Assembly: GCA_031266175.1 (NCBI GenBank)
Contig: JAISBN010000139.1
Coordinates: 762 to 64,761, forward strand
Source: Treponema sp.
Lineage (GTDB): Bacteria; Spirochaetota; Spirochaetia; Treponematales; Breznakiellaceae
Length of the DNA stretch: 64,000 nucleotides
Direction of reading: 5' to 3'
Below are positions 32,988-52,742 of the stretch, in pieces (within the stretch, counting starts at the first letter, position 1; each line of letters opens with the position of its first letter). The translations under genes and the position numbers were made by a program. Below the pieces are notes generated by a model. It was not told the DNA's origin. It saw only the letters and a program-made list of their open reading frames with translations, and made no database searches.

Positions 32988-34661
32988 TTAGCCATCGCCT
33001 TGATACTCGATCTCGCCGAGACAGTTGTAACCCCTAGTTTCGCGCCAGATGCCCTTGTTGGCAAAGTGCACGGAATACTCCGGCAGGCCGCGCAGGTTCT
33101 CATAGTAGTCCGGAAGCCACAGCGCAACCGTGTACTTGCCCGCTTTCATATCCGCGGGAAGCGTTATCGAAGCATCTAAGCTGTTTTCGCCGCTCCGCCA
33201 TGTGCGGGCATCCACGTCTGTCAGCTCGATGTCGCAGCGGTTAACGCCGTTGTCGAAGACCACAAATACCGGACGGACCCTGACGATGCCCGCGTAGCCG
33301 TCGTTGTAAATTACTGCCCTGATGTTGAAAGTATCCCCGCTCCGTGCGGTGCTTGTAAACTCCGCGGTATCAAGGCGAAGCCTATAGCCGAGTTTGCGGT
33401 CAAGACGGGTGTAGGCTCTTTCGGCGGGATCGCTGCCGGATGCGCGGAGCCTGATACCTTTCCAGAACTTAAGATGCTTGATATGCCAGCTGCGGTTTAT
33501 CATAGTCAGCTTTCTTGCCGCGGCTTCACCAAGCGCCAGTTTCGCGCCCGCGTCAATCACCTTTGTATTGGCCAAGGGATCGTTCCTGCCAAAGTCGAGA
33601 TCGCCATCAGGGTACCAGGTCGTCTCGCCGCACTGCATAACATCGCCGCCGTATGATGTTTCGAGCTGAGCCGCAAACGCCGCCACATCTTTGACCTGGT
33701 CGTATTCTTTGTGATCATCCCAATATGGGTAGAATGTTTCCTTCCAGCCGCCGCCGCGGGTATAGCTTAACACAAACGACGCGAACGAGTCGTCGTGCAG
33801 ACCCAGACGGTCAAGCTGTGCCTGTGTCAGCGCGGCCGCGCCCTGCGGAGGGTTCTTTGCCAGCGCCTTTATCTCCATAAGGAATTCGGCGTAGCGAATA
33901 ACGACAGGTATGGTATCCGGCGTGCGGTCGAGCAATCGCTTGATAAGCCGGTAACGCAGCGCGCCCTGCGCCGGAGAGTCTATATCTGTCGTTGGCACGC
34001 CGTTTGCGTATTCGGGACGATCTTCGCGTTTATAGGATTTGTTATCTGCCATAACATACTCGTCGTCATTATGCCACTCTCCCCAGGGGCCGAGGATCCC
34101 GGCGGACAAAGCCTCCACAATGTCGGCATTTTCGGTAATAAGCCCTCCGATTTGCTCAATATGCCGCAAATAGTTCTGCTCGACCACCATCGGTGTCCAG
34201 GCGTCCGCATATACCATGCGGAGGATGATTTTCATCCCGGCTTCCCGTACAACCCGCAATGCTTTGGAGAGTTCAGCTACAAAGGACCGCGGCAGTTCGG
34301 GCGAGTTAATGTATTCAGTAAGGTATATGTTTCCATCCAGTACCGTGACTCCGTCCCTGCGCAACGCGCGCAGCAGCTCAAGGTAAGCGCCGCCAAAACG
34401 CCAGGAATCATATTCCGGATCGGCAAGCCACTCCGCGTAATCCTCATCGAAATCCCGAGGATGAAGATAGTCAAAGCCGGTGAAGTTCTCAAAATATCCC
34501 CTCCCCGGATTGGCTATGACGCTGGTGAAATCCGGCGTATAGGCGAATGTCCGCGTCGAGGCTGCCGGACCCTCGGCGGCCGTCACTGGCGGGAACAGCG
34601 CGGCAGCCGCAAACAAGAGCGCCGCGGCGAATCCATTAAATCTGTCCACTAAATTTCCCAT
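32988..34661 (-). CDS. Secreted glycoside-hydrolase-like protein (DUF4874/DUF4832-like TIM barrel plus beta-sandwich)
   Basis: Start moved to the ATG at 34661 (GGAGGA SD). Signal-like FAAALLFAAAALFPPVTAAEG. GILGPWGEWH motif as in GH42-like/DUF4832 proteins. Confidence 0.55.
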   Translation of the reverse strand: MGNLVDRFNGFAAALLFAAAALFPPVTAAEGPAASTRTFAYTPDFTSVIANPGRGYFENFTGFDYLHPRDFDEDYAEWLADPEYDSWRFGGAYLELLRALRRDGVTVLDGNIYLTEYINSPELPRSFVAELSKALRVVREAGMKIILRMVYADAWTPMVVEQNYLRHIEQIGGLITENADIVEALSAGILGPWGEWHNDDEYVMADNKSYKREDRPEYANGVPTTDIDSPAQGALRYRLIKRLLDRTPDTIPVVIRYAEFLMEIKALAKNPPQGAAALTQAQLDRLGLHDDSFASFVLSYTRGGGWKETFYPYWDDHKEYDQVKDVAAFAAQLETSYGGDVMQCGETTWYPDGDLDFGRNDPLANTKVIDAGAKLALGEAAARKLTMINRSWHIKHLKFWKGIRLRASGSDPAERAYTRLDRKLGYRLRLDTAEFTSTARSGDTFNIRAVIYNDGYAGIVRVRPVFVVFDNGVNRCDIELTDVDARTWRSGENSLDASITLPADMKAGKYTVALWLPDYYENLRGLPEYSVHFANKGIWRETRGYNCLGEIEYQGDG

Positions 34662-34739
34662 TCCTCCTTCAATTATTATCGTACATATGGCGTTACGCAA
34701 ACAAAAAAGAAAGATTAACCGGTTTTTTGGGGGAGGAAG

Positions 34740-34811
34740 ATGAAAATATTGCCATCCTGGAGGCTGGTATTCTACTACCCCGTTACTACCGTATTGGCCG
34801 TTACTTTTTAG
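34740..34811 (+). CDS. Candidate 23-codon sORF (MKILPSWRLVFYYPVTTVLAVTF)
   Basis: Own reading. GGAGG lies 3 nt before the ATG. Hydrophobic peptide. A strong + strand terminator follows about 30 nt downstream. Speculative. Confidence 0.25.
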   Translation: MKILPSWRLVFYYPVTTVLAVTF

Positions 34812-34842
34812 TCCATTCACTCCATTCACTCCATTCGCGTCA

Positions 34843-34878
34843 AAGCCGCGGGGAAACCTGCGGCTTTTTTCGTTTTTT
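34843..34878 (+). terminator. Strong intrinsic terminator with no annotated upstream gene
   Basis: AAGCCGCGGG-GAAA-CCTGCGGCTT stem (GNRA loop) followed by TTTTTTCGTTTTTT. Confidence 0.65.
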
Positions 34879-34921
34879 ATATGACATTTGTCATGTTTTG
34901 GAGGAATTTTTCCTTTTTTTG

Positions 34922-34949
34922 TTGACTTTTTTTCAGAGATCAGTATGCT
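34922..34949 (+). promoter_or_regulatory. Sigma70-like promoter TTGACT-N16-TATGCT upstream of the giant gene
   Basis: -35 at 34922-34927, -10 at 34944-34949. About 70-nt leader. AGAGG SD 6 nt before the ATG at 35025. Confidence 0.45.
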
Positions 34950-35024
34950 TTTTGTGAAGGCACCATCTGCGTGGGAAAGGAAGTCCGCGGGCGCGGACAG
35001 CATCAAGTGTAACAGAGGCCTCCC

Positions 35025-38000
35025 ATGGCTGCCAAATCTTTCTCCTTCTTCCTTTCGGGAATCATCCTGTGTTTATGTTCCGTAACCCTCTTTGCCCAGA
35101 CCAGGCCGGAACTCCGGGGTTTTGACGAACGGGTCTTCCAGTATCATTTTGACCGGGCCGACCGGGAACTGGATCCCGCCTCGTGGATCCGCGAAGCCCG
35201 GCTGGGGATCGGCCTGGCCCGGGCCGGCTGGGAAAGGACCGCCCTGGAAGTATACGCCGACCCTGAACTGCGGGCCGCGGCGCTGGAAGAAGTGGAACGC
35301 TGGTCGGAAGCGGAACTGGAACAGCGGTACGCCCGGTGGCTCTTTAAGCGCTTTTTCGGCGGAGCCTCCGGCGATACGGCAAAAACGCTGGACGCCGCCC
35401 TGGACGAGGCCAACCGCCGCTATGCCTACCATACCGATGACGAAGGCAATATCCTCTACGGCGAAACCGGCGATCCCGAAGCGGTACGTCCCTTTGAGGG
35501 ACGCAGCGTTGAAGAGGACCGGCAGCTGTGGCGCGGCCATGTTTCCGGAACGGAAGCGGCGGAACTGCAGCGCCACAGCCTTTCTTTCTCGTCGGCCTTC
35601 CCCGAATTATTGTCGTTTATCGGGGAAGAAAACCGGGAAAGTTTTGAAAAACAGTTCCGGGAATTTTCCGCCGCTTCGCTGTTACAAAAAAAGGCGGAAT
35701 TTGAAGCCCTGCTGGACCGGGAAGAGCGGCTCTTTATCGCCCGCCGGACCGGCGATGTCTGGAGCCTTCGCAAGCAGAGCGAAAACGAAAAAGCGTCGGT
35801 GATCAGCTCCCAGCTGATTGCCGGCGCCCAGGCCGTCTGCGCCGAGGGAATCTCCGCCCTGGAAGAACGGATAGAAACGGCCCGGGCGGGGACCGGGGAT
35901 CTTTCCTTGGCGGGAGCGGAATGGCTCAGCGCGTTTGAAGAACAGTTTGACCGGGGACTCAAGGCCTGGTCCGGGGCGGAGGAACGGTTTATCATCCGCC
36001 GGATGGAATGGGAACGGGACAGCGGCGAACATTTTCTTGAGGGGGAAGAAGCGTGGAAGACCGCTTTTTCGGAACTGGAAAGGGAACGGCTTGCCTGGGA
36101 AGAACAGGCCAGAGAACTTTTTAACAGCGGGGAACAGCTCTTTGCCGCGGTTTCCCAACAGCTGGAGTCCGCCATCGCCGAAGCCAGGGAAGAATTCCTC
36201 CGGGATGCCGCCCTCCGTACCTACAACGGCGCGGAAAGAGCGGGCGCGTGGGTAGACATGTATGTTACCGGGAATGCGGTTATGGCGGAAGCCCGGGACA
36301 GCGTTGAGTTTTGGCTTTCCCGCTTTGTCAGCGGTTCCCCCGCGGGCGGCATGGAAAACGGCACGCTCGCCGCGTGGGTACAGCAGATTGTCAACCGGGG
36401 CGGAATTACCACCTACCGGGAAGCAAAAGTAAAGATCCTTGGCCGGACAATGGAAAACCGGATAGAGCAGTTTATACCCCTGACCGAAATGCAGAAAATC
36501 GCGGGCCGGGAACTGCTCCGCTGGTCCGCCCTGTATACCCAGTACCGGAACAAATCCGGCGAAGCCCTGGCGGTTCTAGAACAGGAATTCGGCGTGGCCC
36601 TGGGCATGGACCGGGGAGCCCTGACAGCGGTCCTCGGTTCGGACAGCGAATCGTTTTTCCTGGATGAATACCAGGTTGAATTACTGCGGGCAAAGGCAAT
36701 TGCCGGGTACTGGGAACAGCGGCTGGATATTGCCCAGGCCGTTTCCTCCTATGCGGAAGAATTAACCGCGGGCCGCATGACCGAAGAAGAAAGCCTTCTG
36801 CAGTGGAGGGATTCCAAGTCGCGGTATGACACCGCGGTTACGGCCTATGAGGAAGCCCAGAACCGCCTGAAAGACGCCGGATCCGGTCTTGAGACGGTCC
36901 GGGCCGAACTGCAAGACGCCGCGGCGGAACTGGCCGCGGCGGAAAGATCCCTGGAGGAACTGAATAACCGCTACGCGGATCAAATGGCGGCCTACCAGGT
37001 TAATTCCGGTGATTTTATCCTTGAGGAATTAGGCGCTTATTATGCATCCCTGGTCCGGCTGACGGAAAACCGCCTTACCGATGATGCCTATTACACGTCG
37101 TACCTCCGGGCCGAACAGCAGTACGCGGATGCTTATATCCTGCGGGATGCCTGGGCGGCGCTCAAAAGTATTATCGAAACCGCAAGCGAAGCAGAAACCG
37201 AAGCAGAAGCGGAAACCGGTGATGAAGCTGAGACCGAATCCGATACCGGCGAGGAAACGATAAACGAAGCGGCAAGGGAAACCCGGCAGCTGCAGCTGGC
37301 TTTTTTAAGCGCCCCTTCGGCCGCGGACTGGTATTTTGCCGCGGCCGGCAGGGAAGGAACGGAAGCGGAAAAAAAGGCCCTGGAAGAAGAAGGGCTCCTT
37401 AACCGGCTCAAGCGCGAAGCCCTGGAAGAAGCCGTCCCGGGAAACGCCGGGCGGCTGCTGGCCGTTTACCGGGATTTGTCTCCCTATTCGCCCGCGGCCC
37501 AGCGGGAAGCGGCGGACTATGCCCGGCGCGCGCTGGGAATGATATTTGCGGAATTCGGCATCGAAAGCGCCGGGGAGGAATTACCGCCCATGGCGTTGAT
37601 AGGCGACGCCCTGTACCAGTACGAAACGGACAGCGATATGATTCCCGCGGCCGCGCTTGCATCCTTCCTCATACGGATCGATGAAGAAACGGAAGTTCTG
37701 CCCATACTGCTTGAAGCGGAACTTGGAGCGTGGAAAGAGTCGCTCATTGCCTATATGGCGGCAAAGACATTGTACCTGGGAATCGAAATTCCCGAACTGG
37801 CCGGCAACATACTGGATGAATATGAGCAGTTTATTGCCGACGCGCTTGACCGGATGAACGGCGGTGAGCTGTCGCAGGAACTGGCCCGGCAGGGGGCTTT
37901 TTATCAGTACCTGATTGATTTTCTTGTGTCCTGCGAGGATTTAAAAACCGCCGTACGCTCCGGGGGAGATGAAGGCAGGGAACACTGGCGGACCTATATC

Positions 38001-41000
38001 AGCGCCCCCGTCTTTAATCCCTACAGTATCAACAGTAAAGAAACCCTCTCCGCCGCGGAAGCCGGAGATCCGGAAGCGGAACTCCCCGGCGTCTCAGGCA
38101 TCAGGGGCGCTTTGTCCCGGGAGGAAGGGCTGCTGGCCGACGCCTTCGAGGCGGCGGAAGAATCCCGGCGGGTTTTGACGGAAGCCTTCGGCATGTTTTA
38201 TGAAAGCGGCATGTCCCCGGAACAACGGGACTTTCTTTTGGCTGCGGAAAGGTACATGGCCGATCCGGACCTTGGCTGGACGGATCTTCCGGATAACGGT
38301 AATTACGCCGCGGCGCTGGAATTATTCCAGAAAGAGTCAATAGCGTTTCAGAACAGGTTTTTGTACGAGGAAACCATCAAGCAGCAGATAGCGCAGCTCG
38401 GTTTTGAATATACGATCCTTCCTCCGGGAGGACAGGAAGCGCTTGACGCGCTCAAGGACATTTCCGGGGAACTGGAAGCAGCCCGCCTGGTCCACCAGAA
38501 CATGCTTGAGCGGTATAATGCCGGAGCGGCCCGGTATATTGCCGAGGGAAACAATTATGAATCCCTCTACGGTCTGGTAAAAGATCGTTTTACCGCCATG
38601 GAACAGGCCGGGAATGAATATGAAAAACAGGATGCGATAAGGCGCTGGGCAAGTACGGCATACCTGCGTCAGACCGCCGAATTGCCCGAAGCGGCAGTAT
38701 ACTATAAAGAGCCGGAAGAAGAGTTGGAATATGCCGCCGGCAGGAACCGGCGGGCGCAGATTGCCCTGTCCGCACTACAGGATCTCTATAGCGGCGGGGA
38801 GTCCAAAAGACCGTATGCGGATGAAGAGTACAACAGCCTGTACCGGGAATATCAGGAAAGTTTTTCCAGAATGTTTTTAACGTTCAAGGCGAAAATGGAA
38901 TTTACCGCCGGCCTTGAGGCGGAACAGATAAAGAACAGAGAATTGTATCTTTCCGCCCATGACGCCATGTCGTCATTTGTTAATCAGAATATGTATAGCT
39001 GCTATGACGAATACAATCCGCCCGCCGTTACGGACAGTTCTCTCCTGGATTTTATACACATCACCGGATCCGGGGATCTGGGGCTTTCATTTGATCCCGG
39101 GTCATTTGTATTGCACCAAACAACACCGGAAGAGGCTCTTGAATTGTCCGGGTATTTTCAAACCAAAGGATTTACCGGAGACGGGGAAAGCCAAATGTCC
39201 GCCTTCGAAACGGCTCTGAAAAAATGGGTTGCCAGAATGGCCGGTTATAATCTTCAGGATATGAATGTATACCAAACCTGGGGCCTGGCCCTGGATTATC
39301 TAACCAGACGGCTTAAGGAAAGCAACCCGTCCATCGGCAGTACCCGGTCGATCTACGAGCTTACCAATATGGGCGCGGACGGAACTATTGAACTTGACGG
39401 GGATTCTCTGAACAAACTGCTCGACCGATACCGGAATAACAGGCTGCCGGGTATTCAGCAGAACGCATGGAACAGCCTGAGCGCCCAGCAGCGCGCCGAT
39501 CTGGGATTTTTGGCGGCCCTGCTTCTTACCGGAAGGGGAGGGGAAGGGGCCGCGGGACTCACGCAGGTTTCGGAATACCTGGAAATGGACGAGATCTATG
39601 GCGAAGCCGATTATTACAAGATTACGAAAAAACTGTTGTTCATACGGATAACCGTATACCGCTGGCCCTACACCTTTGATCACAGCGGATTAAATCAGGT
39701 GTTTAACGCTTCCAAAAACAGGCAGACCGCATTTTATAATTCCATTAATGCCAATAAATCGCTCTTTTCATCCGGGGTTTCAAAAGCCCTTTCGGAAATA
39801 ACGGCCTATGAAAAATCCTGCGGAAGACTTGCCGTTTTAACCAAACAGAAAGAGGACGGCATAACCTGGGACGATATAGAACCGGCGCTGATGCTTCTGG
39901 AAAACATCGATACAAACGAAATAAAGAAACTGGAAACCCACTGGTATGAGATGCGGGAAGATCGCGGCGCTGTTATCTATACGGATATTGCGGGGGCTTT
40001 GGGCAGTTTATACGCGTGGGGAGAAGGACTCAGAAACGATGCGGAGCGGGACTTTGAGAACGCCTATCTTGCCGGAGAGGAAATCAGACAGGACAAGCAG
40101 GCTGAGTACAGGGATGCCCTGGAAGCGTACATTGACGGAACAGGCTCTCTGGCGGATTTGAATAGCGCCGCCCGGGAGGCCTACGGAGATAAAGCGGCGG
40201 CGTTAAAAAATCATCTGGGAAATACGGGAGCGGCGCTTATTGCCGACTTAAAATCAATCAATGCCGAACGGCCTGAATATACGGAACAGTACCGGAATTT
40301 GGCCGGACAGTATACCGGATTGATAGACCGTGTCTATGACGCCCGGTTTAACGCCGAATTGGCCGCCAGGGAAACGGAATGGCAGGAACAGCAAAAGGAT
40401 TTGCGGGAAAAACTCGCATCCTGGCATGAGGCGGCGGGGCTTATCCTGGAACGGGGAAGGCAGGACTGGAAAGACGGTTTTGAATCCATGCAGGCGGCGT
40501 ATGCAAAATGGGAGCGGGATTTTTCCGAACAGTATGCCATTGTTGATGCGGCCTGGAATGCCGCTTACCTGGAAAGCCTTACGAATAAGGAACAATGGAT
40601 CAATCAGGCTGTCGTTTCCGCCAATGAAGCCCTTGATAATACCCTTCTGAGTTTTGTCGCTTCCGATGCGGAAGCCTATGCCCGAAGGCTGGATTCTTTT
40701 ATACCCTCGGCGCTTCCCGGATACGGAACCGTGGAAGAAGCCGCGTCAATCCTGCAGGCGGTTCTTGGCAGGGCGGGAATTACCGGCCTTGCCGGCGCGT
40801 TTACCGCCATGGCAGGCAGCGCCGGTACGGTTATGACCCAGGTTAGGACCGGAACTTCCGGGCTTGGACTCTGGAATTCGGGTCAGGCCCACGCGGCGGC
40901 AAAGGAGCTTGCCTGGAACAGTACCAGTGAAATGGCGGACGGCAGGATGGCAATCCTTGGATTTCAGGCCAAAGAGTCGGTCTTGGAAGCAAAAAAAATT

Positions 41001-43928
41001 CTGGAAGAAAATATAGCCCGGAGCAATACCGGTTTTGACGGCAGCATGGACGATCTGTATACGATGGACGGAGGCTGGAGACGGACCGGCAGCAGATATA
41101 ACAAGGATATTATTGTCCATTCAACATTTTTTAAAAGCGCCATTACCGACAAGGTTGTGATTGATGCCTATAGATGGTTTGTCATGGATTATTGGGAATT
41201 GAATACCGATTTGAGCGAGGGAAATTTAAACGGCCTGAATTACAGGGGAATACAAGCGCTTGTAGCCATGGCGCAGAAGGAAATTCAGGAAAAAAGCGAT
41301 GAGGTATTCGGCGCTGACGGTACGGAGGGGGCTTTTACCGCCTGGATCGGCAGCCCTGCCGTTATGACCAACGGAGGAATAACAGATAACGGCAGCGGCG
41401 AGCTTGGCCGCCTGCTGCGTGAATTTTACAAATGGGAGCAGAAGCAGGGCGAGGGTATAGCGGCGATGAATGCGCCCCTCTGGGATAAACCTCTCTGGGA
41501 TTCCCGGGGTTCGTGGTTCAGCGCGCCAAGCCTTCGCAGCGCGGTTGACATGGTCAATACAATTGCCGCCACGGTAGTTTCCGCGGTCCTGGCTCCGGTT
41601 ACCGCCGGCGGCAGTTTTGCCCTTGGGATTGCCATCAATTTAACGGATGATCTATTGTTTAACAGTTTGGATGTCGCCTACGGATATAAGAGCTGGTCTG
41701 AAGCGGGATTTGATTTTGGGAAAAAAGCCCTCGTGACAACGGTAACAAGCGTGGCGGGAGCGGCTGTAAAAGTAGGGTCCGCCACTGCGGGAATAGGAGG
41801 CGTTATTTCAACAACCGTCAAAACGGCAGTAAAAACCTTTAGCACAAGTACCATAACCAGCGCCATAAATGCGGTTACCTACAATAACGGCAAATTCGGC
41901 TGGTCAAAAGACGATTTTAGAGGGGGTCTCTGGAACGGTCTCATAAATGCCGCCGTCGCGGGGGCCGGGACCTTTACTACCGGCTCGCTCAACCTTGGGC
42001 TTGAAGGATTTTACGGCAAGTACTATGCTGATGGGACAAAACTATCGTCCCTGGCCGGAGGTTTGGCGGCTCAGGGCGTGAATTATGCCCTGGGCGGTGA
42101 CTTTACGTTGAATGCTTTCAACATTGGGCTTTTAGCCAAAAATGACGCTGTGGACCTTGGAATGCTGGAACTGCATTTTGGACATGATGGTTTTAGTGCC
42201 GGCCTTGGGTCGGGCGGTGCGGATGTCAGTCTGGAATCCATTATTGGGGCAGCAAGAGGTTTGGAGGCATGGAAAGCGAATTTTGACATCTGGGGTTCTG
42301 ATTCTGCGGATGCGAAAAAATACATAAGCCAGATGAGGACGCTGTATTCGGGCGGGAATGGCAGTGAAAATAGAGAATTGTACGATTCGATGCTGGCGGG
42401 AACAACCATGGTTTATGAAAACCGAAACGCCGATCACACCCAAACGGTTTATGATCCCGTGTCCGGTTATAAATTGATACTGCTGGGAAACGATGCCCTT
42501 GATGATGGAAGCCGCTTTGGCCTTAATGTGGTGTTCAGTCATGAATCCTATCGAAACGGCCTGGATGACGGCGTTGAAGGACAGAGGATGGAAACAGACA
42601 GGGCGATCTTTGGGCATATCAGTACCGCCTTGGGATTAATGGGAAGTTACGGGGAAAATGCTGTCGGCTCCGAAGTTCGGGAACGGGCTCTTAAATTCGC
42701 TGAAAACTATAATATTTTTCTATCTGATCTTAGTACTGTAGAAGATCATAATGCGGCAGTTGGAAATTTACTCAATGTCTTTGATGAATTTGATTCGGGT
42801 AAAGATTATTGGCGGTTGGTAAAAAAAGAAGGTGGATCCTATGGTTTGCTTAATGATGGAAACCACAGCCTGCTCGATGAAAAAGGTAAGGTGATTGTTA
42901 AAAGCACTCTTGATATTTTTGACAGATCGGGAAATATTATTGGTCATCATTATGATGATCCCGATTCATATCTTAGATCCCTTGGTATGCTGTTGGGGAT
43001 ATATCCCGATTTCAATCAGGGGACGGATAAGGCGCAGCTGTTAAAAGAATACCGGCTTTTTACCGCAAATACCTATTTTGATAATATTTATTTGGGAACA
43101 GTCAAATCGGTAAAACAAAATAATGGCATCATAAATGTTAATCCGTATCTTATGACGTACAAAGAGATAGTTAATGGTAAAGGGTATATGATAGCCGCCT
43201 ACGGTTCTTATAACCAGATTGCTCTTTCAATTTTCGATGAATATAATGAAGTGAGAGGACATGTGATCTTTAACAACAAACCGGGAGAACGGGATTATGC
43301 GATGATCGAAAATATGATACCCGAGGGTAAAAGGTTAAAAGCAGGGACAATTTCATTCGAAACAGTTGGTTTTTACGCTAATGTAAAAATGTTTGGCTTG
43401 GGTTCGACTTTACCAGATCCCACAAAAATGGGGGCCGGTCATCCTGCTGTTCTTGATGGTACTTATCGTTACGCGTGGTCGCTTCACGCCGTCGCTTCTC
43501 AAGATCCTTATAGGGCTTTCCGGTTGTTTAGTGGAAGGCCTGATTCCTGGGACTCTGTTACCGGGCCAAAACCCGCGATTAATAGTGGTATTGGTATTGT
43601 GGAAGATTTTCCATATAGTAACGGAATATTTGATAACTGGTCGGGGGACTTGCGGAAGTTTAATGGATATTACTATAAGAATGGAAACAGAGCGATGACG
43701 ACTACGGACGCTATTAATGGACATAGGGCGTATTCAAATCCATATGAGTTGAAAACCAATGGCTATACGGCCGGAAGCCTCGGATGCCAGGTTTGGATAC
43801 CCACGACCTTTTATCAGCTTTCCAGCGGATTAAGGACAACTATGGAATCCCAGGCCTGGGGTAATTTTATTATCAACAGGTGGATTTTAGGTGACGGGAC
43901 AGGGAACAAAAATAATTGGAGTTGGTAA
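35025..43928 (+). CDS. Giant (2,967 aa) secreted modular protein: signal peptide, long Glu/Ala/Arg/Leu-rich helical body, Gly/Ala/Thr-rich hydrophobic module, AT-rich C-terminal YkuD/Tlde1-like candidate toxin domain
   Basis: Single uninterrupted ORF. N-terminus MAAKSFSFFLSGIILCLCSVTLFAQT. C-terminal INGH-x17-SLGCQV motif. All six-frame competitors are short. No family recognised for the first ~2,700 aa. Confidence 0.85.
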   Translation: MAAKSFSFFLSGIILCLCSVTLFAQTRPELRGFDERVFQYHFDRADRELDPASWIREARLGIGLARAGWERTALEVYADPELRAAALEEVERWSEAELEQRYARWLFKRFFGGASGDTAKTLDAALDEANRRYAYHTDDEGNILYGETGDPEAVRPFEGRSVEEDRQLWRGHVSGTEAAELQRHSLSFSSAFPELLSFIGEENRESFEKQFREFSAASLLQKKAEFEALLDREERLFIARRTGDVWSLRKQSENEKASVISSQLIAGAQAVCAEGISALEERIETARAGTGDLSLAGAEWLSAFEEQFDRGLKAWSGAEERFIIRRMEWERDSGEHFLEGEEAWKTAFSELERERLAWEEQARELFNSGEQLFAAVSQQLESAIAEAREEFLRDAALRTYNGAERAGAWVDMYVTGNAVMAEARDSVEFWLSRFVSGSPAGGMENGTLAAWVQQIVNRGGITTYREAKVKILGRTMENRIEQFIPLTEMQKIAGRELLRWSALYTQYRNKSGEALAVLEQEFGVALGMDRGALTAVLGSDSESFFLDEYQVELLRAKAIAGYWEQRLDIAQAVSSYAEELTAGRMTEEESLLQWRDSKSRYDTAVTAYEEAQNRLKDAGSGLETVRAELQDAAAELAAAERSLEELNNRYADQMAAYQVNSGDFILEELGAYYASLVRLTENRLTDDAYYTSYLRAEQQYADAYILRDAWAALKSIIETASEAETEAEAETGDEAETESDTGEETINEAARETRQLQLAFLSAPSAADWYFAAAGREGTEAEKKALEEEGLLNRLKREALEEAVPGNAGRLLAVYRDLSPYSPAAQREAADYARRALGMIFAEFGIESAGEELPPMALIGDALYQYETDSDMIPAAALASFLIRIDEETEVLPILLEAELGAWKESLIAYMAAKTLYLGIEIPELAGNILDEYEQFIADALDRMNGGELSQELARQGAFYQYLIDFLVSCEDLKTAVRSGGDEGREHWRTYISAPVFNPYSINSKETLSAAEAGDPEAELPGVSGIRGALSREEGLLADAFEAAEESRRVLTEAFGMFYESGMSPEQRDFLLAAERYMADPDLGWTDLPDNGNYAAALELFQKESIAFQNRFLYEETIKQQIAQLGFEYTILPPGGQEALDALKDISGELEAARLVHQNMLERYNAGAARYIAEGNNYESLYGLVKDRFTAMEQAGNEYEKQDAIRRWASTAYLRQTAELPEAAVYYKEPEEELEYAAGRNRRAQIALSALQDLYSGGESKRPYADEEYNSLYREYQESFSRMFLTFKAKMEFTAGLEAEQIKNRELYLSAHDAMSSFVNQNMYSCYDEYNPPAVTDSSLLDFIHITGSGDLGLSFDPGSFVLHQTTPEEALELSGYFQTKGFTGDGESQMSAFETALKKWVARMAGYNLQDMNVYQTWGLALDYLTRRLKESNPSIGSTRSIYELTNMGADGTIELDGDSLNKLLDRYRNNRLPGIQQNAWNSLSAQQRADLGFLAALLLTGRGGEGAAGLTQVSEYLEMDEIYGEADYYKITKKLLFIRITVYRWPYTFDHSGLNQVFNASKNRQTAFYNSINANKSLFSSGVSKALSEITAYEKSCGRLAVLTKQKEDGITWDDIEPALMLLENIDTNEIKKLETHWYEMREDRGAVIYTDIAGALGSLYAWGEGLRNDAERDFENAYLAGEEIRQDKQAEYRDALEAYIDGTGSLADLNSAAREAYGDKAAALKNHLGNTGAALIADLKSINAERPEYTEQYRNLAGQYTGLIDRVYDARFNAELAARETEWQEQQKDLREKLASWHEAAGLILERGRQDWKDGFESMQAAYAKWERDFSEQYAIVDAAWNAAYLESLTNKEQWINQAVVSANEALDNTLLSFVASDAEAYARRLDSFIPSALPGYGTVEEAASILQAVLGRAGITGLAGAFTAMAGSAGTVMTQVRTGTSGLGLWNSGQAHAAAKELAWNSTSEMADGRMAILGFQAKESVLEAKKILEENIARSNTGFDGSMDDLYTMDGGWRRTGSRYNKDIIVHSTFFKSAITDKVVIDAYRWFVMDYWELNTDLSEGNLNGLNYRGIQALVAMAQKEIQEKSDEVFGADGTEGAFTAWIGSPAVMTNGGITDNGSGELGRLLREFYKWEQKQGEGIAAMNAPLWDKPLWDSRGSWFSAPSLRSAVDMVNTIAATVVSAVLAPVTAGGSFALGIAINLTDDLLFNSLDVAYGYKSWSEAGFDFGKKALVTTVTSVAGAAVKVGSATAGIGGVISTTVKTAVKTFSTSTITSAINAVTYNNGKFGWSKDDFRGGLWNGLINAAVAGAGTFTTGSLNLGLEGFYGKYYADGTKLSSLAGGLAAQGVNYALGGDFTLNAFNIGLLAKNDAVDLGMLELHFGHDGFSAGLGSGGADVSLESIIGAARGLEAWKANFDIWGSDSADAKKYISQMRTLYSGGNGSENRELYDSMLAGTTMVYENRNADHTQTVYDPVSGYKLILLGNDALDDGSRFGLNVVFSHESYRNGLDDGVEGQRMETDRAIFGHISTALGLMGSYGENAVGSEVRERALKFAENYNIFLSDLSTVEDHNAAVGNLLNVFDEFDSGKDYWRLVKKEGGSYGLLNDGNHSLLDEKGKVIVKSTLDIFDRSGNIIGHHYDDPDSYLRSLGMLLGIYPDFNQGTDKAQLLKEYRLFTANTYFDNIYLGTVKSVKQNNGIINVNPYLMTYKEIVNGKGYMIAAYGSYNQIALSIFDEYNEVRGHVIFNNKPGERDYAMIENMIPEGKRLKAGTISFETVGFYANVKMFGLGSTLPDPTKMGAGHPAVLDGTYRYAWSLHAVASQDPYRAFRLFSGRPDSWDSVTGPKPAINSGIGIVEDFPYSNGIFDNWSGDLRKFNGYYYKNGNRAMTTTDAINGHRAYSNPYELKTNGYTAGSLGCQVWIPTTFYQLSSGLRTTMESQAWGNFIINRWILGDGTGNKNNWSW

Positions 43929-43929
43929 A

Positions 43930-45255
43930 ATGATAAACGCTATCTGGCTTAAGGGCATTGTAATATTGGTTTTCACGGTTACTTTATCCTCCTGCACCGC
44001 TAAAAACGAAATGCCGGAGGATAATACAAGTGAAAGGTCTGTGGAAATTGAAAAGCAAATTCCGGCTCAAAATAAAAACTCCTCCGGTTTGGCATCTTTG
44101 AGCGTTGAAACTGATAAGGCCGATAATGAGTCTGATGATGACGGAGATTATGAGGTTATTCTAAAAATGCAGGGCCTGGAATTAAGGGATTTTACGGCAA
44201 ACGGACGTAATAATCTTTCCGCCCAACAGGGGACAAGCTATCTGTTTAAGTATTTAAAGAATATGCGGCAGGATGTTCACGATATGTTTTTATTAACTGA
44301 TAGTAAGGTTCAACGTATGTTTAATTCACATTTATGGTATGGCCGGTCTGTACCGGGCGTAAAAGAACCGGTACACTTCATTGAATATCAGGAAAACCTG
44401 CTGCAATTTAAGGAAAGAAATGAAGTAATACCGGTCGGAGAAATGACCCTTGATAAATGGGATGCCATCCTCGGGGGAATAATTACGGAATTTACAAACG
44501 GAAAAATAGCGATATACAATCCAATATCTGTCAGAGCGGGGGATGGGGTCATTTTCTATATACCATATTATATTAAAGCAGAAGATGCTGCAAGGTGTTT
44601 GTTTTTGCGGGTTAGGGATGGTAAGATTGTTGATAAAAAATATCTTGATCATAGCTTTGATTTTGCCATTTATGATTTGGGCTTCTTTTATTCAAGTTTA
44701 TATGACAAGGATTATTCCTTTGGAGAATGGCATGTGGATGATTTTAAAAATATAATTGTTATTCAGGATATGAATCATAACATGCTGACATTTGATTATA
44801 AATCATTGATCAGTACTAAATGTGACGTTTTTACCCATGTTGTTGTTTTACCCTTTGTTCAAAATGGGAAGATGGGATTTTCTCTTTTAATTGGGTATCC
44901 AATGATATTTTTGTACATACCCAATAAGGGTGAAATTTTTCCTAAAAATAGTGGTATGGCTCTATATAAAACATATATTGCGGATTTTGCAAATAACGAA
45001 CTCCTTTTGCTGGAAGAAGGTTGTTTTAATTTTTTGGCGACTGAAAATTTTGTTAAAAATTTTGTGTTAAATAATCTTGATAGAGATTACTACAACCTGG
45101 CGTTTTTGCCGGAAGGATTTTCTGATACGATTCAGTCGGATGAATTTGTGGAAGAAGCAATAACCGAACGTAATGTGGAGTTAAACTTAATAGAGGCAAG
45201 GAGAAATTTGTATGACGAATCTTTGTTGCAGAGGTTGATAGATATAGATAAATAG
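43930..45255 (+). CDS. AT-rich lipoprotein of unknown family, coupled to the giant gene (candidate immunity/accessory protein)
   Basis: Start moved to the ATG at 43930, 1 nt after the giant gene's TAA. Lipobox TVTLSSC. 441 aa with no recognisable domain. Confidence 0.7.
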   Translation: MINAIWLKGIVILVFTVTLSSCTAKNEMPEDNTSERSVEIEKQIPAQNKNSSGLASLSVETDKADNESDDDGDYEVILKMQGLELRDFTANGRNNLSAQQGTSYLFKYLKNMRQDVHDMFLLTDSKVQRMFNSHLWYGRSVPGVKEPVHFIEYQENLLQFKERNEVIPVGEMTLDKWDAILGGIITEFTNGKIAIYNPISVRAGDGVIFYIPYYIKAEDAARCLFLRVRDGKIVDKKYLDHSFDFAIYDLGFFYSSLYDKDYSFGEWHVDDFKNIIVIQDMNHNMLTFDYKSLISTKCDVFTHVVVLPFVQNGKMGFSLLIGYPMIFLYIPNKGEIFPKNSGMALYKTYIADFANNELLLLEEGCFNFLATENFVKNFVLNNLDRDYYNLAFLPEGFSDTIQSDEFVEEAITERNVELNLIEARRNLYDESLLQRLIDIDK

Positions 45256-45327
45256 CAGCTTAATACAAACCGGGGCAGATACGTGAATAACAGTTAAAAT
45301 CCAGGGAAGTTATTTATGATCACGATA

Positions 45328-45963
45328 TTATTCATTTTTAGTATTTGAAACGTAAAGTACATCCTTCAGATTAAACCGGAATTCAAACTCTTCCAGGGCT
45401 TGACCGAAACCGAAAAAAAGGGGATAGGTTACGATCCCCTGGCCGGGAAGGGGAGCTCCGCAGATGACGGTTTTCTGGATAAAAACAGGGGTATTTTTCC
45501 GGATGTTTATTTTTGCCCTGGCCGCGGCTTCCTGTTCTTCAAAGGTCCGGGCGTTGTAAATGACGGTGTATGAATCGTATGCCCCGGAAGCGTTCTGCCA
45601 ATAAAGCTCACCGTTTATGGTAAAATTTTGGTACTGCTTAATGGAAGGGGGGCTGTTTTCCCCGGAAGGATAGATCACAAAATAAAAGGCCAGTCCGTCC
45701 GGATAGGTATAGGTTTGTTTCCCGTCAAAGATAAAATTTTGCCGTTCAACCAGGGCAAGTACGGTGGTGGACATTTTCCCCCTTCTGGTAATGGGAATTC
45801 TGGAGACCGGGGTTAAAGGTTTTGTTGCCTTGTCTGAGAGCGGGACGCCGGTACAGGAAAAAACAAGGAGTAGCAGCAGAAAACCGTAAGGAAAGAGCCG
45901 CCTGAATTTACCTCGGGCTAGGCGGGTATGGGCGAAAGATTCTTTCCGGTAGTTGACCGTCAT
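45328..45963 (-). CDS. Hypothetical lipoprotein
   Basis: ATG at 45963. LLLLLVFSC lipobox. No family recognised. Confidence 0.5.
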   Translation of the reverse strand: MTVNYRKESFAHTRLARGKFRRLFPYGFLLLLLVFSCTGVPLSDKATKPLTPVSRIPITRRGKMSTTVLALVERQNFIFDGKQTYTYPDGLAFYFVIYPSGENSPPSIKQYQNFTINGELYWQNASGAYDSYTVIYNARTFEEQEAAARAKINIRKNTPVFIQKTVICGAPLPGQGIVTYPLFFGFGQALEEFEFRFNLKDVLYVSNTKNE

Positions 45964-46071
45964 ATTCAAGAAGTATATCCCCCTTGCGGGGAAAAAGCTA
46001 CTCGGAATCAGGAGCCTTCCTGGGAAAAACGGGACCGTCGTAGTCTTCGCCCCATTTTACTGTTTGTGTTC

Positions 46072-47010
46072 CTATCCGGCAGCTTCGTTCCAGTGGCCGA
46101 TGGTACGGATTTTCTGACTGCGGTAACGGACCAGAATTTCCGGCCGCCGGGCGCAGAGATCGTCCAGGTCCCGGATAAGCGTATCCTTAATGGCCCGGGC
46201 GACGGCGCCGGGATCGGCATGGGCGCCTTCTTCGGGTTCGGGAATGATCCCATTAATTACCTTAAAGTCCAGCAAGTCGCCGCTGGTAATTCGGAGCATG
46301 GCGGCGGCGTCTTTTGCCCTGGACGCGTCGCGGAGAAGTATGGACGCGCAGCCTTCGGGGCTGATAACGGAATAGATGGCATTTTCCAGCATATAAATTT
46401 TATCCCCCACGCAAAGGCCCAGGGCGCCGCCGGAGCCGCCTTCCCCGATAATGATACAGATTACCGGAGTAAGGAGGCGGCTGAAACACATCAGGTTCCG
46501 GGCAATGGCTTCGCCTATGCCCCGTTCCTCCGCTCCCAGTCCGGGGTACGCGCCGGCGGTATCTACCAGGGTAACGATGGGCCGGTGAAACTTTTCCGCT
46601 TCCCTGGCCAGCCGCAGGGCTTTGCGGTACCCTTCAGGATTGGCCATGCCGTGGTTGCGGCGCACGTTTTCTTTCAGGGTGCGGCCCTTCTGGTTTGCCA
46701 GCACCGTTACAGGCCGGCCTTCCAAAAAACAGATGCCCCCCACAATCGAAGGATCGTCCCCAAAGGTCCGGTCACCGTGGAGTTCGATAAAGTTGTCAAA
46801 AATCCGGGTGATATAATCCATCGCGTAGGGCCGGTCGGGATGCCGGGCAAGTTCCACCTGTTTCCACACCGTTTCGGCCCGCGACTGGGACCGGAGCTTT
46901 AGCTCCAGCCGGGAAATTTCATCCGCCGCATCCAGTCCCGTTTCCTCGATCAGTTTTTTTAATTCCCCAAGCTTTGATTCAAGCCGGTTTCCGTCCGGGG
47001 TATTATTCAT
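46072..47010 (-). CDS. accA: Acetyl-CoA carboxylase carboxyltransferase alpha subunit
   Basis: Start moved to the ATG at 47010 (MNNTPDG...). RPYAMDYI, GRPVTVLANQKG, VTLVDTAGAYPG. Confidence 0.9.
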   Translation of the reverse strand: MNNTPDGNRLESKLGELKKLIEETGLDAADEISRLELKLRSQSRAETVWKQVELARHPDRPYAMDYITRIFDNFIELHGDRTFGDDPSIVGGICFLEGRPVTVLANQKGRTLKENVRRNHGMANPEGYRKALRLAREAEKFHRPIVTLVDTAGAYPGLGAEERGIGEAIARNLMCFSRLLTPVICIIIGEGGSGGALGLCVGDKIYMLENAIYSVISPEGCASILLRDASRAKDAAAMLRITSGDLLDFKVINGIIPEPEEGAHADPGAVARAIKDTLIRDLDDLCARRPEILVRYRSQKIRTIGHWNEAAG

Positions 47011-47806
47011 GATTGCTCCTGTGCAGGTCGATAAGGGCGGAGATGATCCGCCGCTGATCCCGGCGGTGGACGATGGTGTCCACGAAGCCCTTTTCCAGCT
47101 GGAACTCGGAACGCTGAAATCCTTCGGGAAGGCTTTGCCGTATCGTTCCTTCAATAACCCGGGGACCCGCAAAACCGATAAGGGCGCCGGGCTCCGCCAT
47201 GATCACATCGGCCAGCATGGCGAAGGATGCCGTCACTCCGCCGGTGGTGGGATCGCAGAGGACGATAAAGAAGGGGACTCCCGCCTTGTCCAGCTCCGCG
47301 GCGGCGCTGGCGGTTTTTGCCATCTGCATAAGGGAGAAGATCCCCTCCTGCATCCGGGCGCCGCCGGAAGTGGTATAGATCAGCACGGGAAGTTTTTTTT
47401 CCGCCCCCTTGATTAGGGCCCGGCCGACTTTTTCACCCACCACCGATCCCATGGAGCCGCCCATGAACCTGAAGGACATAATTCCCAGGATGACGGGCTT
47501 TCCTTCAATGGTGCAGTCGCCGGTAAGCACCGCGTCCTTCATCCGGGTTTTGGCTTCCGCCTCGGAAAGTTTTTCTTCGTAGCCCGAAAGATCAATGGGA
47601 TTAAGGGAGCGGAGGTTCGCGGAAAATTCAACGAAGCTTCCCTCATCCGCAAGGTATGCTATCCGTTCCACGGGCTCCATCCGGTAGTGATAACCGCATC
47701 CGGGACAGGTGTTAAGCGATGCCTTTACCGTCGCTTCGTCGCGGGGTTTTCCGCATCCGGGACAGGTTTTTCCGGTCTGCCCGCCGTCTTCACTGGACAT
47801 GTTCAA
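47003..47806 (-). CDS. accD: Acetyl-CoA carboxylase carboxyltransferase beta subunit
   Basis: Zinc ribbon CPGCG..CPGCGYHYRM, MGGSMGSVVGEK. Confidence 0.9.
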   Translation of the reverse strand: MNMSSEDGGQTGKTCPGCGKPRDEATVKASLNTCPGCGYHYRMEPVERIAYLADEGSFVEFSANLRSLNPIDLSGYEEKLSEAEAKTRMKDAVLTGDCTIEGKPVILGIMSFRFMGGSMGSVVGEKVGRALIKGAEKKLPVLIYTTSGGARMQEGIFSLMQMAKTASAAAELDKAGVPFFIVLCDPTTGGVTASFAMLADVIMAEPGALIGFAGPRVIEGTIRQSLPEGFQRSEFQLEKGFVDTIVHRRDQRRIISALIDLHRSNHE

Positions 47807-49148
47807 CTTCCTTCTCTATATTTTCGTACCAGGAGGTGCCGAAAACGCCGTAATGGAACACGGGGTGATTGATGATCCACCGCTGCCGTTCTTTATTGGT
47901 TGCGATTCCGTCAATTACCAGTTCCCGCAGGGCGCGGTCCATCCGGGCCAGCGCGTGGTTCCGGTCTGTTTCATGGACGATAAGTTTGGCCACCATCGAA
48001 TCGTAGTGGGGCGGAACGGAATACCCCGGATAGAGGAACGAATCGAACCGTACCCCCGGGCCTCCGGGTACTTCCAGCCGGGTTATTTTTCCCGGAGTCA
48101 GGGCATTGATCCTGCATTCCATCGCCCAGCCCGAAAGCGGCGGTTCCGCCGGGAAATCCGCCTCACCCGCCGCCGCGGCGTCCGCCTGTCCGGGAAGTTC
48201 CAGGCGGCCTTCGGTACAGGCAAGGATCTGCTGGCGTATAATATCGACGCCGCTTACAAACTCGCTTACCGGATGCTCTACCTGGACCCGGGCGTTTACT
48301 TCCATAAAATAAAATTTGCCCTCTTCCACAAGGAACTCGATGGTACCTGCGCCGCGGTACTTAAGCTCCCGGAAAAGCGGCACGGCCGCGGCGGTCATGG
48401 CCCGGCGCATGCCGGCGCTTACCGCGGGGGAGGGACTTTCTTCGATAAGTTTCTGATGATTTTTCTGAACCGTACAGTCCCGCTCGCCCAGAACGGCCGC
48501 ATTGCTGCCGTCGGCGATAATCTGCAGTTCCACGTGCCGGGGATTTTCCAGGTACTTTTCGATGAACACCGTACCGTCGGCAAAATTTTCCTCCGCCTCC
48601 CGGCTGGCAATGCTGATGTTGTCCCGCAGGTCTTCCGCCCTGCGGACGATCCGCATGCCTCTGCCGCCCCCGCCGGCGGCGGCCTTGATAATCACGGGAA
48701 AACCCAGGGCCTCCGCCGCCTGTATTGTTTCACCGCTGACCGCCCCGGTTCCCGGTGTTACCGGGAGGCCGTATTTTTGCGCGGTAGCCCTGGCCCGGAC
48801 CTTGTCGCCCAGGAGTTCTATCACCTCCGGATCGGGGCCGATAAAAAGAAGACCCTGGTCCCGGACCAGCCGGGCAAATTCCGGGTTTTCCGAAAGAAAG
48901 CCCACTCCGGGATGAACCGCCCCGCAGTCCGTATGGAGGGCCGCCATAATCAGGTTTTCCTTTACCAGGTAACTTTTTGCCGGGGGTGCCGGTCCTATGC
49001 AAACCGATCTGTCGGCAAGCCGCACATGGAGACTGTCCCTGTCGGCTTCGGAATAAACCGCGACGGTTTCGATTCCCATTTCCCGGCAGCTACGGATAAT
49101 GCGGACGGCAATTTCACCCCGGTTGGCGATTAAGAGACGCTTTATCAC
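47790..49148 (-). CDS. accC: Biotin carboxylase
   Basis: MIKRLLIANRGEIAVRIIR, GGGGRGMRIV, EMNARVQVEHPVSE. Confidence 0.93.
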   Translation of the reverse strand: MIKRLLIANRGEIAVRIIRSCREMGIETVAVYSEADRDSLHVRLADRSVCIGPAPPAKSYLVKENLIMAALHTDCGAVHPGVGFLSENPEFARLVRDQGLLFIGPDPEVIELLGDKVRARATAQKYGLPVTPGTGAVSGETIQAAEALGFPVIIKAAAGGGGRGMRIVRRAEDLRDNISIASREAEENFADGTVFIEKYLENPRHVELQIIADGSNAAVLGERDCTVQKNHQKLIEESPSPAVSAGMRRAMTAAAVPLFRELKYRGAGTIEFLVEEGKFYFMEVNARVQVEHPVSEFVSGVDIIRQQILACTEGRLELPGQADAAAAGEADFPAEPPLSGWAMECRINALTPGKITRLEVPGGPGVRFDSFLYPGYSVPPHYDSMVAKLIVHETDRNHALARMDRALRELVIDGIATNKERQRWIINHPVFHYGVFGTSWYENIEKEVEHVQ

Positions 49149-49164
49149 GGTCGTTCCTTCATCG

Positions 49165-49686
49165 TCAGCCCGGCCGCTTTACTTCAAAGAGTTCCTGTCC
49201 GTATTCAACCATATCCCCTCCTGCGGCTTTTACCGCGATAATTTCGCAGTCAAATTCCGCGACCAGCTGATTCATCATCTTCATCGCTTCCAGGATACAC
49301 AGGGTACCGCCGGCCTTTACTTTTGAGCCGGGCCGGACAAAGGGCGGAGCGTCGGGACCCGGCGAAGGGTAAAACGTTCCCACGATGGGACTGGTAATAA
49401 ACTCCGTCCCGGTCGCGGCGGCGTCTGCCGCGGTTCCGCTGCCCGCCGAAACCGGCTGTACCCCGGGGTCCTGTGCCGCGGGGCGGGATGCGGACGATGC
49501 CCCCGCGGGCGCTTCCGCCGTGCGGGACGGCGTTACGGACCCGGAATGTACCGCGGCGGCGCCGATGACGCCGGCGGAACTTTCTTTACGCAGTAGCAGC
49601 CGGGCGCTGCCGTCGCTTAATTCCAGTTCCCCGATGTTTCCGGCGGAGAACCTGTCGACCAGGGTAAGGATCAGTTTTTCATCCAT
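49165..49686 (-). CDS. accB: Biotin carboxyl carrier protein
   Basis: C-terminal biotinyl motif CILEAMKMMN. Ala/Ser/Pro-rich linker. Confidence 0.88.
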   Translation of the reverse strand: MDEKLILTLVDRFSAGNIGELELSDGSARLLLRKESSAGVIGAAAVHSGSVTPSRTAEAPAGASSASRPAAQDPGVQPVSAGSGTAADAAATGTEFITSPIVGTFYPSPGPDAPPFVRPGSKVKAGGTLCILEAMKMMNQLVAEFDCEIIAVKAAGGDMVEYGQELFEVKRPG

Positions 49687-49701
49687 AAAAAACCTCTTTG
49701 T

Positions 49702-51431: not shown

Positions 51432-51467
51432 ATCGGCCTCCCTGTGTTTATTTTACGGCCCGCGACT

Positions 51468-52727: not shown

Positions 52728-52742
52728 ACCAGCTCCATTCCT

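Follow-up and report, generated by a model that had tools for sequence, protein, structure and literature searches.

Polymorphic toxin systems, a Sec-dependent class among them, are a recognized category (Zhang et al. 2012; PMC3482391), marked by a conserved N-terminal trafficking part with recombining C-termini, by an immunity gene behind the tip that co-varies with it and neutralizes its toxicity, and by stand-alone or 5'-truncated spare cassettes. The described systems with which the present locus can be compared are MafB/MafI of Neisseria, CdiA/CdiB/CdiI, the Rhs/YD-repeat toxins and the type VI secretion system's (T6SS) peptidoglycan effectors. The locus is a gene for a 2,967-amino acid (aa) product, the giant protein, in a 64,000-nucleotide (nt) stretch of Treponema sp. 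DNA (GenBank assembly GCA_031266175.1, contig JAISBN010000139.1, positions 762 to 64,761 of the forward strand), referred to as the window. Its family has a conserved N-terminal part and recombining C-termini, and 5'-truncated spare cassettes occur in two relatives' contigs (L075 and L076), with none inside the window. On balance, the giant protein is probably a Sec-dependent polymorphic effector that attacks peptidoglycan, with periplasmic proteins as its candidate immunity partners. A constant carrier, recombining tips, exported partners, truncated cassettes, remnants of earlier tips and foreign composition together make up the genetic behavior of a polymorphic toxin.

The giant gene is a single open reading frame (ORF) at 35025..43928 (+) that runs from an ATG start to a TAA stop without interruption, as the initial annotation of the window had it, and the product has a size of ~320 kDa. 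The parts of the gene, and the gene that follows it, are these:

35025..35096, + strand: Sec-type signal peptide, aa 1-24, with a predicted signal peptidase I cut after LFA.
35097..41531, + strand: conserved body, aa 25-2169, rich in Ala, Glu, Leu and Arg, with collinear homology in 109 proteins of 2,100-3,900 aa.
37194..37244, + strand: acidic tract ETEAEAETGDEAETESD, aa 724-740, in a hypervariable, insertion-prone stretch of the body.
41532..42095, + strand: hydrophobic module, aa 2170-2357, modelled by AlphaFold2 as six helices of 23-30 residues and conserved in all homologues.
42096..42284, + strand: Gly-rich beta-hairpin segment, aa 2358-2420, with near-invariant columns in two alignments and modelled strands.
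42285..42667, + strand: pre-tip domain, aa 2421-2548, terminating in GHISTALGLMGSYGENAVG, with a recombination breakpoint at its 3' end.
42668..43928, + strand: exchangeable tip of class T3, aa 2549-2967 and the stop codon, without DNA similarity to the nearest relative (L001) until 43877; GC content 0.407.
43930..45255, + strand: lipoprotein gene D17, 441 aa from its ATG (441/454-aa), with lipobox LSSC; GC content 0.358.

Much of the layout drawn in the initial annotation holds. The classical signal peptide is there, residues 1-2000 are the Glu/Ala/Arg/Leu-rich stretch that was described, with its acidic tract, and the Gly/Ala/Thr-rich hydrophobic module lies at aa ~2170-2400, with hydropathy peaks of up to 1.78. 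The supposed linker of a few hundred residues is instead a domain (aa ~2421-2548) that is conserved and has HE.YR.G as an invariant motif. The C-terminal domain is foreign in composition, as was proposed (GC content 0.547 in the body versus 0.407 in the last 1.26 kb and 0.358 in D17), but at ~420 aa it is larger than the ~200 aa allotted to it.

Recombination at the 3' end of the gene is evident from the comparison with the nearest relative, locus L001 (protein P0001). The two are 91% identical in nt sequence over window 34844-42667; DNA similarity is absent over 42668-43877 and returns at 43878-45261 (88%) and 45358-53003 (92%). Because similarity to L001 ends at 42667/42668, the exchangeable segment begins at aa 2549, directly after GHISTALGLMGSYGENAVG, and spans ~420 aa (aa 2549-2967, nt 42668-43928). 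The replaced segment of L001 comprises a T5 tip together with its partner gene D6, and the window's counterpart is the tip alone. Most of the 109 homologues align by BLASTP collinearly from residue 1 to query ~2600-2660 and then continue into ~300-350 unrelated residues, and the tails sort into 17 classes among the 48 loci with a complete 3' end. Nearest-neighbor bodies carry different tip classes in the pairs window/L001 (90%), L057/L038 (88%) and L029/L024 (86%), and the tip class of L053 likewise differs from that of its nearest body, L038 (86%); L040 and L044, with bodies 91% identical, share one tip class. The breakpoints recur at two conserved motifs, one at the end of the pre-tip domain (...LM..YG..VG), where those of window/L001 and L005/L002 coincide, and the other a YDSS.DYWKL hairpin ~45 residues farther on. 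The C-terminal ~300-420 aa are thus swapped by recombination at two conserved junction motifs, and the ~2,550-aa body is inherited vertically.

The tips that match Pfam fall to Peptidase_M23 (several classes), NlpC/P60, CHAP and Peptidase_M15_4, with M23 also in L075_g1, and weak matches were obtained to DUF261 and to DUF5675, a family described as C82 (L,D-transpeptidase)-like (bioRxiv 10.64898/2026.04.11.717860). Every tip class that can be named is a predicted peptidoglycan-cleaving enzyme family. Tip GC content lies on average 5 points under that of the body, with a gap of 14-20 in high-GC hosts and of 14 in the window, and the low values fit import from a shared pool.

Spare and displaced copies of the exchangeable unit are also found. 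On L075 the end of an M23-tip gene is followed by an exported SH3-domain protein, then by a truncated ORF and finally by a ~565-aa exported protein; the truncated ORF has an abrupt start, at the position equivalent to query residue 2260, and bears a pre-tip domain and a T3-type (T3b) tip. L076 is alike, with a truncated ORF that begins at the equivalent of query residue 2492 and has its own partner. Displacement is seen in the sister strains L078 and L001, in both of which the live tip is T5 followed by D6, and a 3' remnant of a T3 tip is kept directly upstream of D17. Window 43694-45462 matches L078 2214-3959 at 91.2%, a span that includes 235 nt of the T3 tip with its His/Cys motif and still encodes ...NAINGHRSYSNPYELKTNGYTAGSLGCQVW...NNWSW*; the L001 remnant is ~50 nt. 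It follows from the remnants beside D17 that the T3 tip and D17 formed an older unit, which was displaced by an incoming T5-D6 cassette. The T3 tip and D17 of the window are read as a low-GC imported unit. The initial proposal of a conserved stalk with a swappable tip is thereby borne out by the L001 breakpoint, the 17 tip classes, the orphan cassettes and the displaced remnant.

The window's own tip starts with the YD-like hairpin junction, which is followed by helices, a beta-sandwich (aa ~2721-2838) and a C-terminal region with invariant His and Cys. These are His2900 (43722-43724) and Cys2921 (43785-43787), the latter within GSLGC in the window, and the motif H-x(19-29)-GSx[GA]C is present in 25/25 T3-type tips. 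The AlphaFold2 model of the tip has a predicted local distance difference test score (pLDDT) of 70, with a confident beta-sandwich (tip residues 173-290) and values <50 in the C-terminal ~130 residues, the Cys/His region. Foldseek returned nothing under E 0.5 for this model against PDB, a result to be read with the low confidence of the Cys/His region in mind. Two tip profiles and one T5 tip gave chance matches only against PDB sequences. Homologues of the tip numbered 11 by a word-indexed search and 25 by an exhaustive profile search of 1.84 billion representatives, and all those examined bear the giant family's pre-tip sequence or are fragments. The idea of a tip common to Rhs, T6SS or LXG toxins is not supported, the homologues being giant-family members or fragments. 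Comparison by hhalign with the T5 tips, which are DUF5675-like, aligned the SxGC stretch only (E 0.03 and 0.015, probability 2-3%) and was rejected as evidence of kinship. The spacing and context of the His...SxGC motif are reminiscent of the catalytic motif of YkuD-type L,D-transpeptidases and of the T6SS effector Tlde1, a likeness for which the searches gave no support. Since Pfam, PDB, Foldseek and profile-profile comparison give no fold, the T3 tip is called a probable Cys/His enzyme only, of what is probably a new family.

The gene behind the tip, D17, is predicted to be translationally coupled to the giant gene: its ATG lies one base past the giant gene's TAA, and a GGAG sequence is located within the last codons of the giant ORF. 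D17 has no match in Pfam or NCBIfam and is a near-ORFan, with 3 clusters in 5.8 billion. The downstream gene had been annotated as tightly coupled; the coupling stands, but co-variation with the tip does not hold in the closest comparison, for D17 keeps 83% identity in L001, where the tip is a different one. Likewise, in the alignment of orthologues that had been suggested as a check, the body is conserved and the C-terminus variable, but the gene downstream does not change together with the tip between the nearest strains. D17 as a tip-specific immunity gene that switches with the tip was therefore rejected for the window/L001 pair in favor of the older, displaced T3-D17 unit, which accounts for the identity. 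D17 is a probable old partner, perhaps an immunity protein, of the T3 tip.

Elsewhere in the family, partner genes co-vary with tip class in part. A co-directional gene starts <=300 bp downstream in 33/44 loci (those with >=900 bp of downstream sequence), and in 30 of these 33 its product has a signal-peptide or lipoprotein-like start by a simple hydropathy test. T5 is linked to D6, which carries the F5/8-type-C domain PF25302, in 3/4 loci; T6 is linked to D19, T2 to D24 or to SH3-domain proteins, and T1/T8 to D2; and T3b tips are followed by a ~550-aa partner family in 4/4 contigs (L075, L076, L077 and L079).

Several partners were noted in passing. The D24 protein at L022:19045-19548 and its L037 homologue, exported proteins of 167-204 aa behind M23-type tips, themselves match Peptidase_M23 (E 2.6e-07), and D24 could be a degenerate LytM-like domain that acts as an inhibitor of, or immunity protein for, the M23 tip. 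In L057, L053 and L050 the gene after the giant gene, D15, specifies an exported protein with an FGE-sulfatase domain (PF03781, E 1.8e-27), which recurs as the partner of family members with short tails. On L076 an unclassed tip (g1, L076:1-1113) precedes a 336-aa partner without a signal peptide (g2, L076:1157-2167). Because L076_g2 has no signal peptide, some tips of the family may act in the cytoplasm and not on the cell wall.

Of the constant parts, the signal peptide, MAAKSFSFFLSGIILCLCSVTLFA with the cut before Q (continuing as QTRPEL), is the top hydrophobic peak of the whole protein. Its n-region, h-region and (F/L)A-Q cleavage site, or a close variant, recur in nearly all of ~100 homologues, and because this signal-peptidase-I-type layout is so widely kept, Sec export is a predicted property of the giant family. 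The body is best conserved in its first ~700 aa and has invariant Trp and Gly columns within the family alignment. Self-comparison of the giant protein gave no internal repeats. BLAST high-scoring pairs are interrupted at query aa ~720 to ~810 and ~940-980 in distant homologues that bear large insertions. No part of the protein matched a family in Pfam, NCBIfam, PHROGs or PDB sequences (chance matches only in PDB), in agreement with the view taken at the outset that the body belongs to no recognizable family.

The AlphaFold2 model of the region before the tip (aa 1900-2560) has a mean pLDDT of 76, and Foldseek with it gave nothing at E <= 0.001 against PDB and a viral structure library. The hydrophobic module is a candidate membrane-insertion or translocation element according to the modelled helices. 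The beta-hairpin segment that follows has the consensus GGDFTLN..N....GLLELH.GRDG....GTGG.DVS. In the pre-tip domain, modelled as helical, HE.YR.G is represented by HESYRNG (aa 2506-2512, 42540-42560), of which H, E, R and G are invariant in the alignment. Weak, non-significant fold resemblances of this domain are to CapP (7t5t, prob 0.63) and to an IrrE-like protein (prob 0.84), as well as to SprT-like proteins; the invariant Arg occupies the position of the second zincin His, which makes a conventional zinc site doubtful.

The 109 homologues were obtained from 5.8 billion protein clusters; most of them are 2,800-3,900 aa long, and all that have an organism name come from Treponema, Spirochaetaceae or other spirochaete metagenome-assembled genomes. 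A one-genome-per-species scan gave 71 loci with the same taxonomy, including the isolate Treponema sp. TIM-1 (L018), a cultured carrier, and a few environmental spirochaetes. According to the scan the family is found mainly in termite-gut treponemes, and its distribution may be under-estimated, as the scan relied on short conserved patterns. Genomes mostly have a single copy, beside housekeeping genes at a chromosomal place that is conserved and often lies upstream of the acc/fab operon. With lengths of mostly 2,600-3,900 aa, the giant proteins form an undescribed family whose members belong almost all to termite-gut Treponema and Spirochaetaceae; no description of it was found in the searchable full-text literature.

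Some loci stand apart. L076 (JAISCQ010000184.1), the carrier of an orphan cassette, is binned as 'Bacteroidales bacterium', and the full-length loci L063 and L067 (LIUH01000057.1 and LIUH01000105.1) as 'Fibrobacteria bacterium GUT31', which would hold two copies if the binning were correct; the contigs are either mis-binned treponeme sequences or products of cross-phylum transfer. In L058:9965-18782 the pre-tip tblastn match lies 2.3 kb beyond the ORF end, and in L008:10001-18772 the ORF begins 1.2 kb after the start of the tblastn match. These two are interrupted genes, whether as pseudogenes or through assembly errors.

In the window, the giant gene is placed between yidC/jag and the acc/fab genes. 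Upstream are the genes for TatC, YidC, Jag/KhpB and DUF6675 and one for a DUF4832/DUF4874 protein; downstream, an oppositely oriented small lipoprotein gene precedes accA, accD, accC, BCCP, fabV, fabF, fabG, fabD and fabH. No TpsB, T6SS, type VII secretion (T7SS), Rhs, PrsW, type V secretion or phage genes are among these neighbors, and the first impression of a locus without a known secretion partner or delivery repeats was upheld there and in Pfam and NCBIfam. The divergent ORF upstream, at 32988-35006 (-), encodes the DUF4874/DUF4832 protein and is listed with a TTG start, only 18 bp away from the ATG of the giant gene. This ORF probably starts further inside, in which case the promoter region that the two genes share would be longer. 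The small ORF between D17 and accA, at 45328-45969 (-), encodes a 213-aa lipoprotein-like product with lipobox VFSC and a GC content of 0.472. It has no Pfam match, is 86% identical in L001 and is kept beside accA in L003 and L006, and it appears to be a native gene outside the exchangeable unit. GC skew is strongly positive (0.10-0.21) over the giant gene and D17 (window 36000-46000) and near zero or negative elsewhere, and looks like a compositional trait of these two genes, not a replication-related switch.

The proposed action of the giant protein may be set out as follows, all the steps that lead from periplasmic export to action on another cell being ones that we infer. After Sec export and cleavage of the signal peptide, the body would serve as scaffold and delivery device, and the six-helix module (aa 2170-2357) would enter a membrane and pass the tip across. 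The pre-tip HE.YR.G domain may help to release or gate the tip. As a putative Cys/His enzyme with a YkuD-like H...SxGC signature, the tip would then damage the periplasmic peptidoglycan of a competitor, and the adjacent periplasmic partner would shield the producer.

Several observations count against such an effector. A route across the outer membrane is not evident at the locus, and because the producer's own periplasm contains the substrate of the named tips as well, the same observations would suit a self-directed role. The T3 tip (15 members) matches no Pfam family and no PDB entry by sequence or structure, and its profile comparison with the DUF5675-like T5 tips was non-significant. D17 shows no change with the tip swap, its profile resembles that of the T3b partner family only weakly (hhalign E 0.012, 151 columns), and tips of the window's own subclass occur in L002 and L003 without a partner gene, so that 2/3 of the informative loci sharing that subclass are without any partner. 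No partner gene accompanies the tip in the 5 loci of the T4 class, Treponema sp. TIM-1 among them, and that tip is stable and native in composition. Finally, the orphan cassettes come from two short metagenomic contigs only.

These points lead to the alternative that fares best, a possible though doubtful one, in which the giant protein would reside in the periplasm as a scaffold that is fixed in place by its hydrophobic helices and positions the C-terminal hydrolase on the producer's own wall. Such a scaffold might tentatively be assigned to cell separation, elongation or the making of room for periplasmic flagella, with the tip diversity explained by hydrolases that replaced each other non-orthologously; the exported proteins encoded alongside would then, rather doubtfully, be regulators or inhibitors of the hydrolase instead of immunity proteins. 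Sec export would put the protein where its only recognizable substrate is, and the mostly single copy at a conserved position beside housekeeping genes, the absence of an evident outer-membrane export device, and the stable tips without a partner in the T4 lineage (which includes the cultured strain and has a compositionally native tip) and in the T3a loci L002 and L003 all speak for such a scaffold. A scaffold does not, however, readily explain why tips are replaced between strains with 90% identical bodies, why they are of low GC content and imported, or why there are remnants of displaced tips and 5'-truncated spare cassettes that each come with a partner of their own; nor does it explain the one or more partners without a signal peptide (L076_g2 at least) or the main restriction of the family to termite-gut treponemes, a restriction that the pattern scan may overstate.

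A stronger form of the effector reading is unlikely. In it, the ~2,550-aa body would be a new, self-contained cell-to-cell delivery device of diderm spirochaetes that brings the tip into a neighbor's periplasm without a dedicated secretion system. After ordinary Sec export, the six-helix module and the pre-tip domain would carry the peptidoglycan-degrading tip, either by direct membrane insertion or through outer-membrane contact or exchange, with no type V, VI or VII system and no phage tail. The initial claim of a new delivery mechanism was premature, as Sec-dependent polymorphic toxins are a known category (PMC3482391) and a self-directed periplasmic role is possible; what is new is the carrier, the tip family and the candidate immunity families.

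Tape-measure proteins such as Pb2 of phage T5 combine a long helical ruler, channel-forming hydrophobic helices and a C-terminal wall hydrolase, and since the order of parts in the giant protein agrees overall, it might be thought a domesticated tape-measure or ejection-type protein, or part of a tailocin or other injection device. The best viral-library Foldseek matches of aa 1900-2560 are in fact to tape-measure and internal-virion proteins, and the top non-significant ones include podovirus internal virion and phage M23/GH108 proteins. Such an origin is nevertheless highly improbable: no match is significant (all E > 0.04, best E 0.046, TM-score ~0.1), no PHROGs or Pfam family was matched, no phage, tail, sheath or baseplate genes are present in the window or the relatives' loci, the conserved Sec signal peptide is foreign to tape-measure proteins and the gene sits between yidC/jag and acc/fab. 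Phage tape-measure identity was rejected on this context and on the absence of matches. A surface adhesin or fibre with a C-terminus that varies for attachment or antigenic variation is scarcely credible either, for although the great length, the signal peptide, the acidic tract of low complexity and the varying C-terminus would suit one, the nameable variable ends are catalytic wall hydrolases with intact motifs and not binding domains, there are no adhesin repeats, autotransporter barrel, sortase or type IX secretion signals (Pfam/NCBIfam), and the paired exported partner genes would be left unexplained.

Interbacterial antagonism in spirochaetes is almost unexplored and should matter in the dense, treponeme-rich termite hindgut. 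The giant family brings to it the genetic hallmarks of polymorphic toxins on a carrier that has no known domain and a Sec leader as sole visible export signal, together with new candidate immunity proteins and a putative Cys/His tip family that has no other occurrence among 1.8 billion protein representatives. If the protein is a weapon, the question becomes how another diderm cell receives a wall hydrolase from a periplasmic protein of 320 kDa; should it be a self-directed scaffold for wall remodelling, it would be an unusual piece of spirochaete cell biology. Experiments on either are made possible by the cultured carrier, Treponema sp. TIM-1.

Set beside the known systems, the giant protein resembles phage tape-measure proteins with a C-terminal lysin (e.g. 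Pb2) in the order of long helical region, hydrophobic helices and wall hydrolase, but differs in having a signal peptide, no phage context and no sequence or significant structural match. With the T6SS peptidoglycan effectors (Tae/Tge amidases and muramidases, M23 effectors and Tlde1, which is L,D-transpeptidase-like) it shares the target and, in the tips of its relatives, the enzyme families; those effectors are paired with periplasmic immunity lipoproteins, and the giant-family partners likewise bear signal peptides or lipoboxes. The difference is that there is no T6SS here and that the effector forms one protein with a Sec-exported carrier of 2,550 aa. Like the Rhs/YD-repeat toxins, the family has a large conserved body, a sharp demarcation motif, polymorphic and orphan tips and candidate immunity genes, and one YD-like hairpin (YDSS.DYW...DG) stands at the giant protein's junction; unlike them it has no YD array, RHS core or PxxxxDPxGL (by Pfam and regular expressions), and no T6SS, PAAR or VgrG.

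The remaining two are nearer. CdiA/CdiB/CdiI also has a giant exoprotein whose long stalk is conserved and whose C-terminal tip can be swapped, with a segment that is hydrophobic or rich in Gly ahead of a conserved pre-toxin junction; its immunity gene lies directly behind the tip, as candidate immunity genes often do in the giant family, and its cassettes, too, include orphan and displaced ones. In contrast to CdiA (type Vb), the giant protein is without the two-partner secretion (TPS) domain, filamentous haemagglutinin (FHA) repeats and VENN motif, no CdiB/TpsB neighbor is present, and the composition of the stalk, the guide for aa 1-1900, suggests helix and not beta-helix. MafB/MafI has in common with the giant family a signal peptide as the sole recognizable export signal, a conserved N-terminal part, a variable C-terminal toxin (a putative one in the giant family) with an adjacent immunity or candidate immunity gene, spare 5'-truncated cassettes and no clear outer-membrane route. 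It differs in that the giant protein lacks DUF1020/MafB-N (Pfam), has an unrelated body 5-10x longer and carries tips that are predicted periplasm-acting wall hydrolases in place of what are mostly nucleases and deaminases, with some lineages having no partner. The defining domains of MafB and CdiA were searched for and not found, so the giant protein belongs to neither family; by analogy, its logic appears closest to that of MafB in its reliance on a signal peptide only, and to that of CdiA in its giant stalk, hydrophobic segment and pre-toxin junction.

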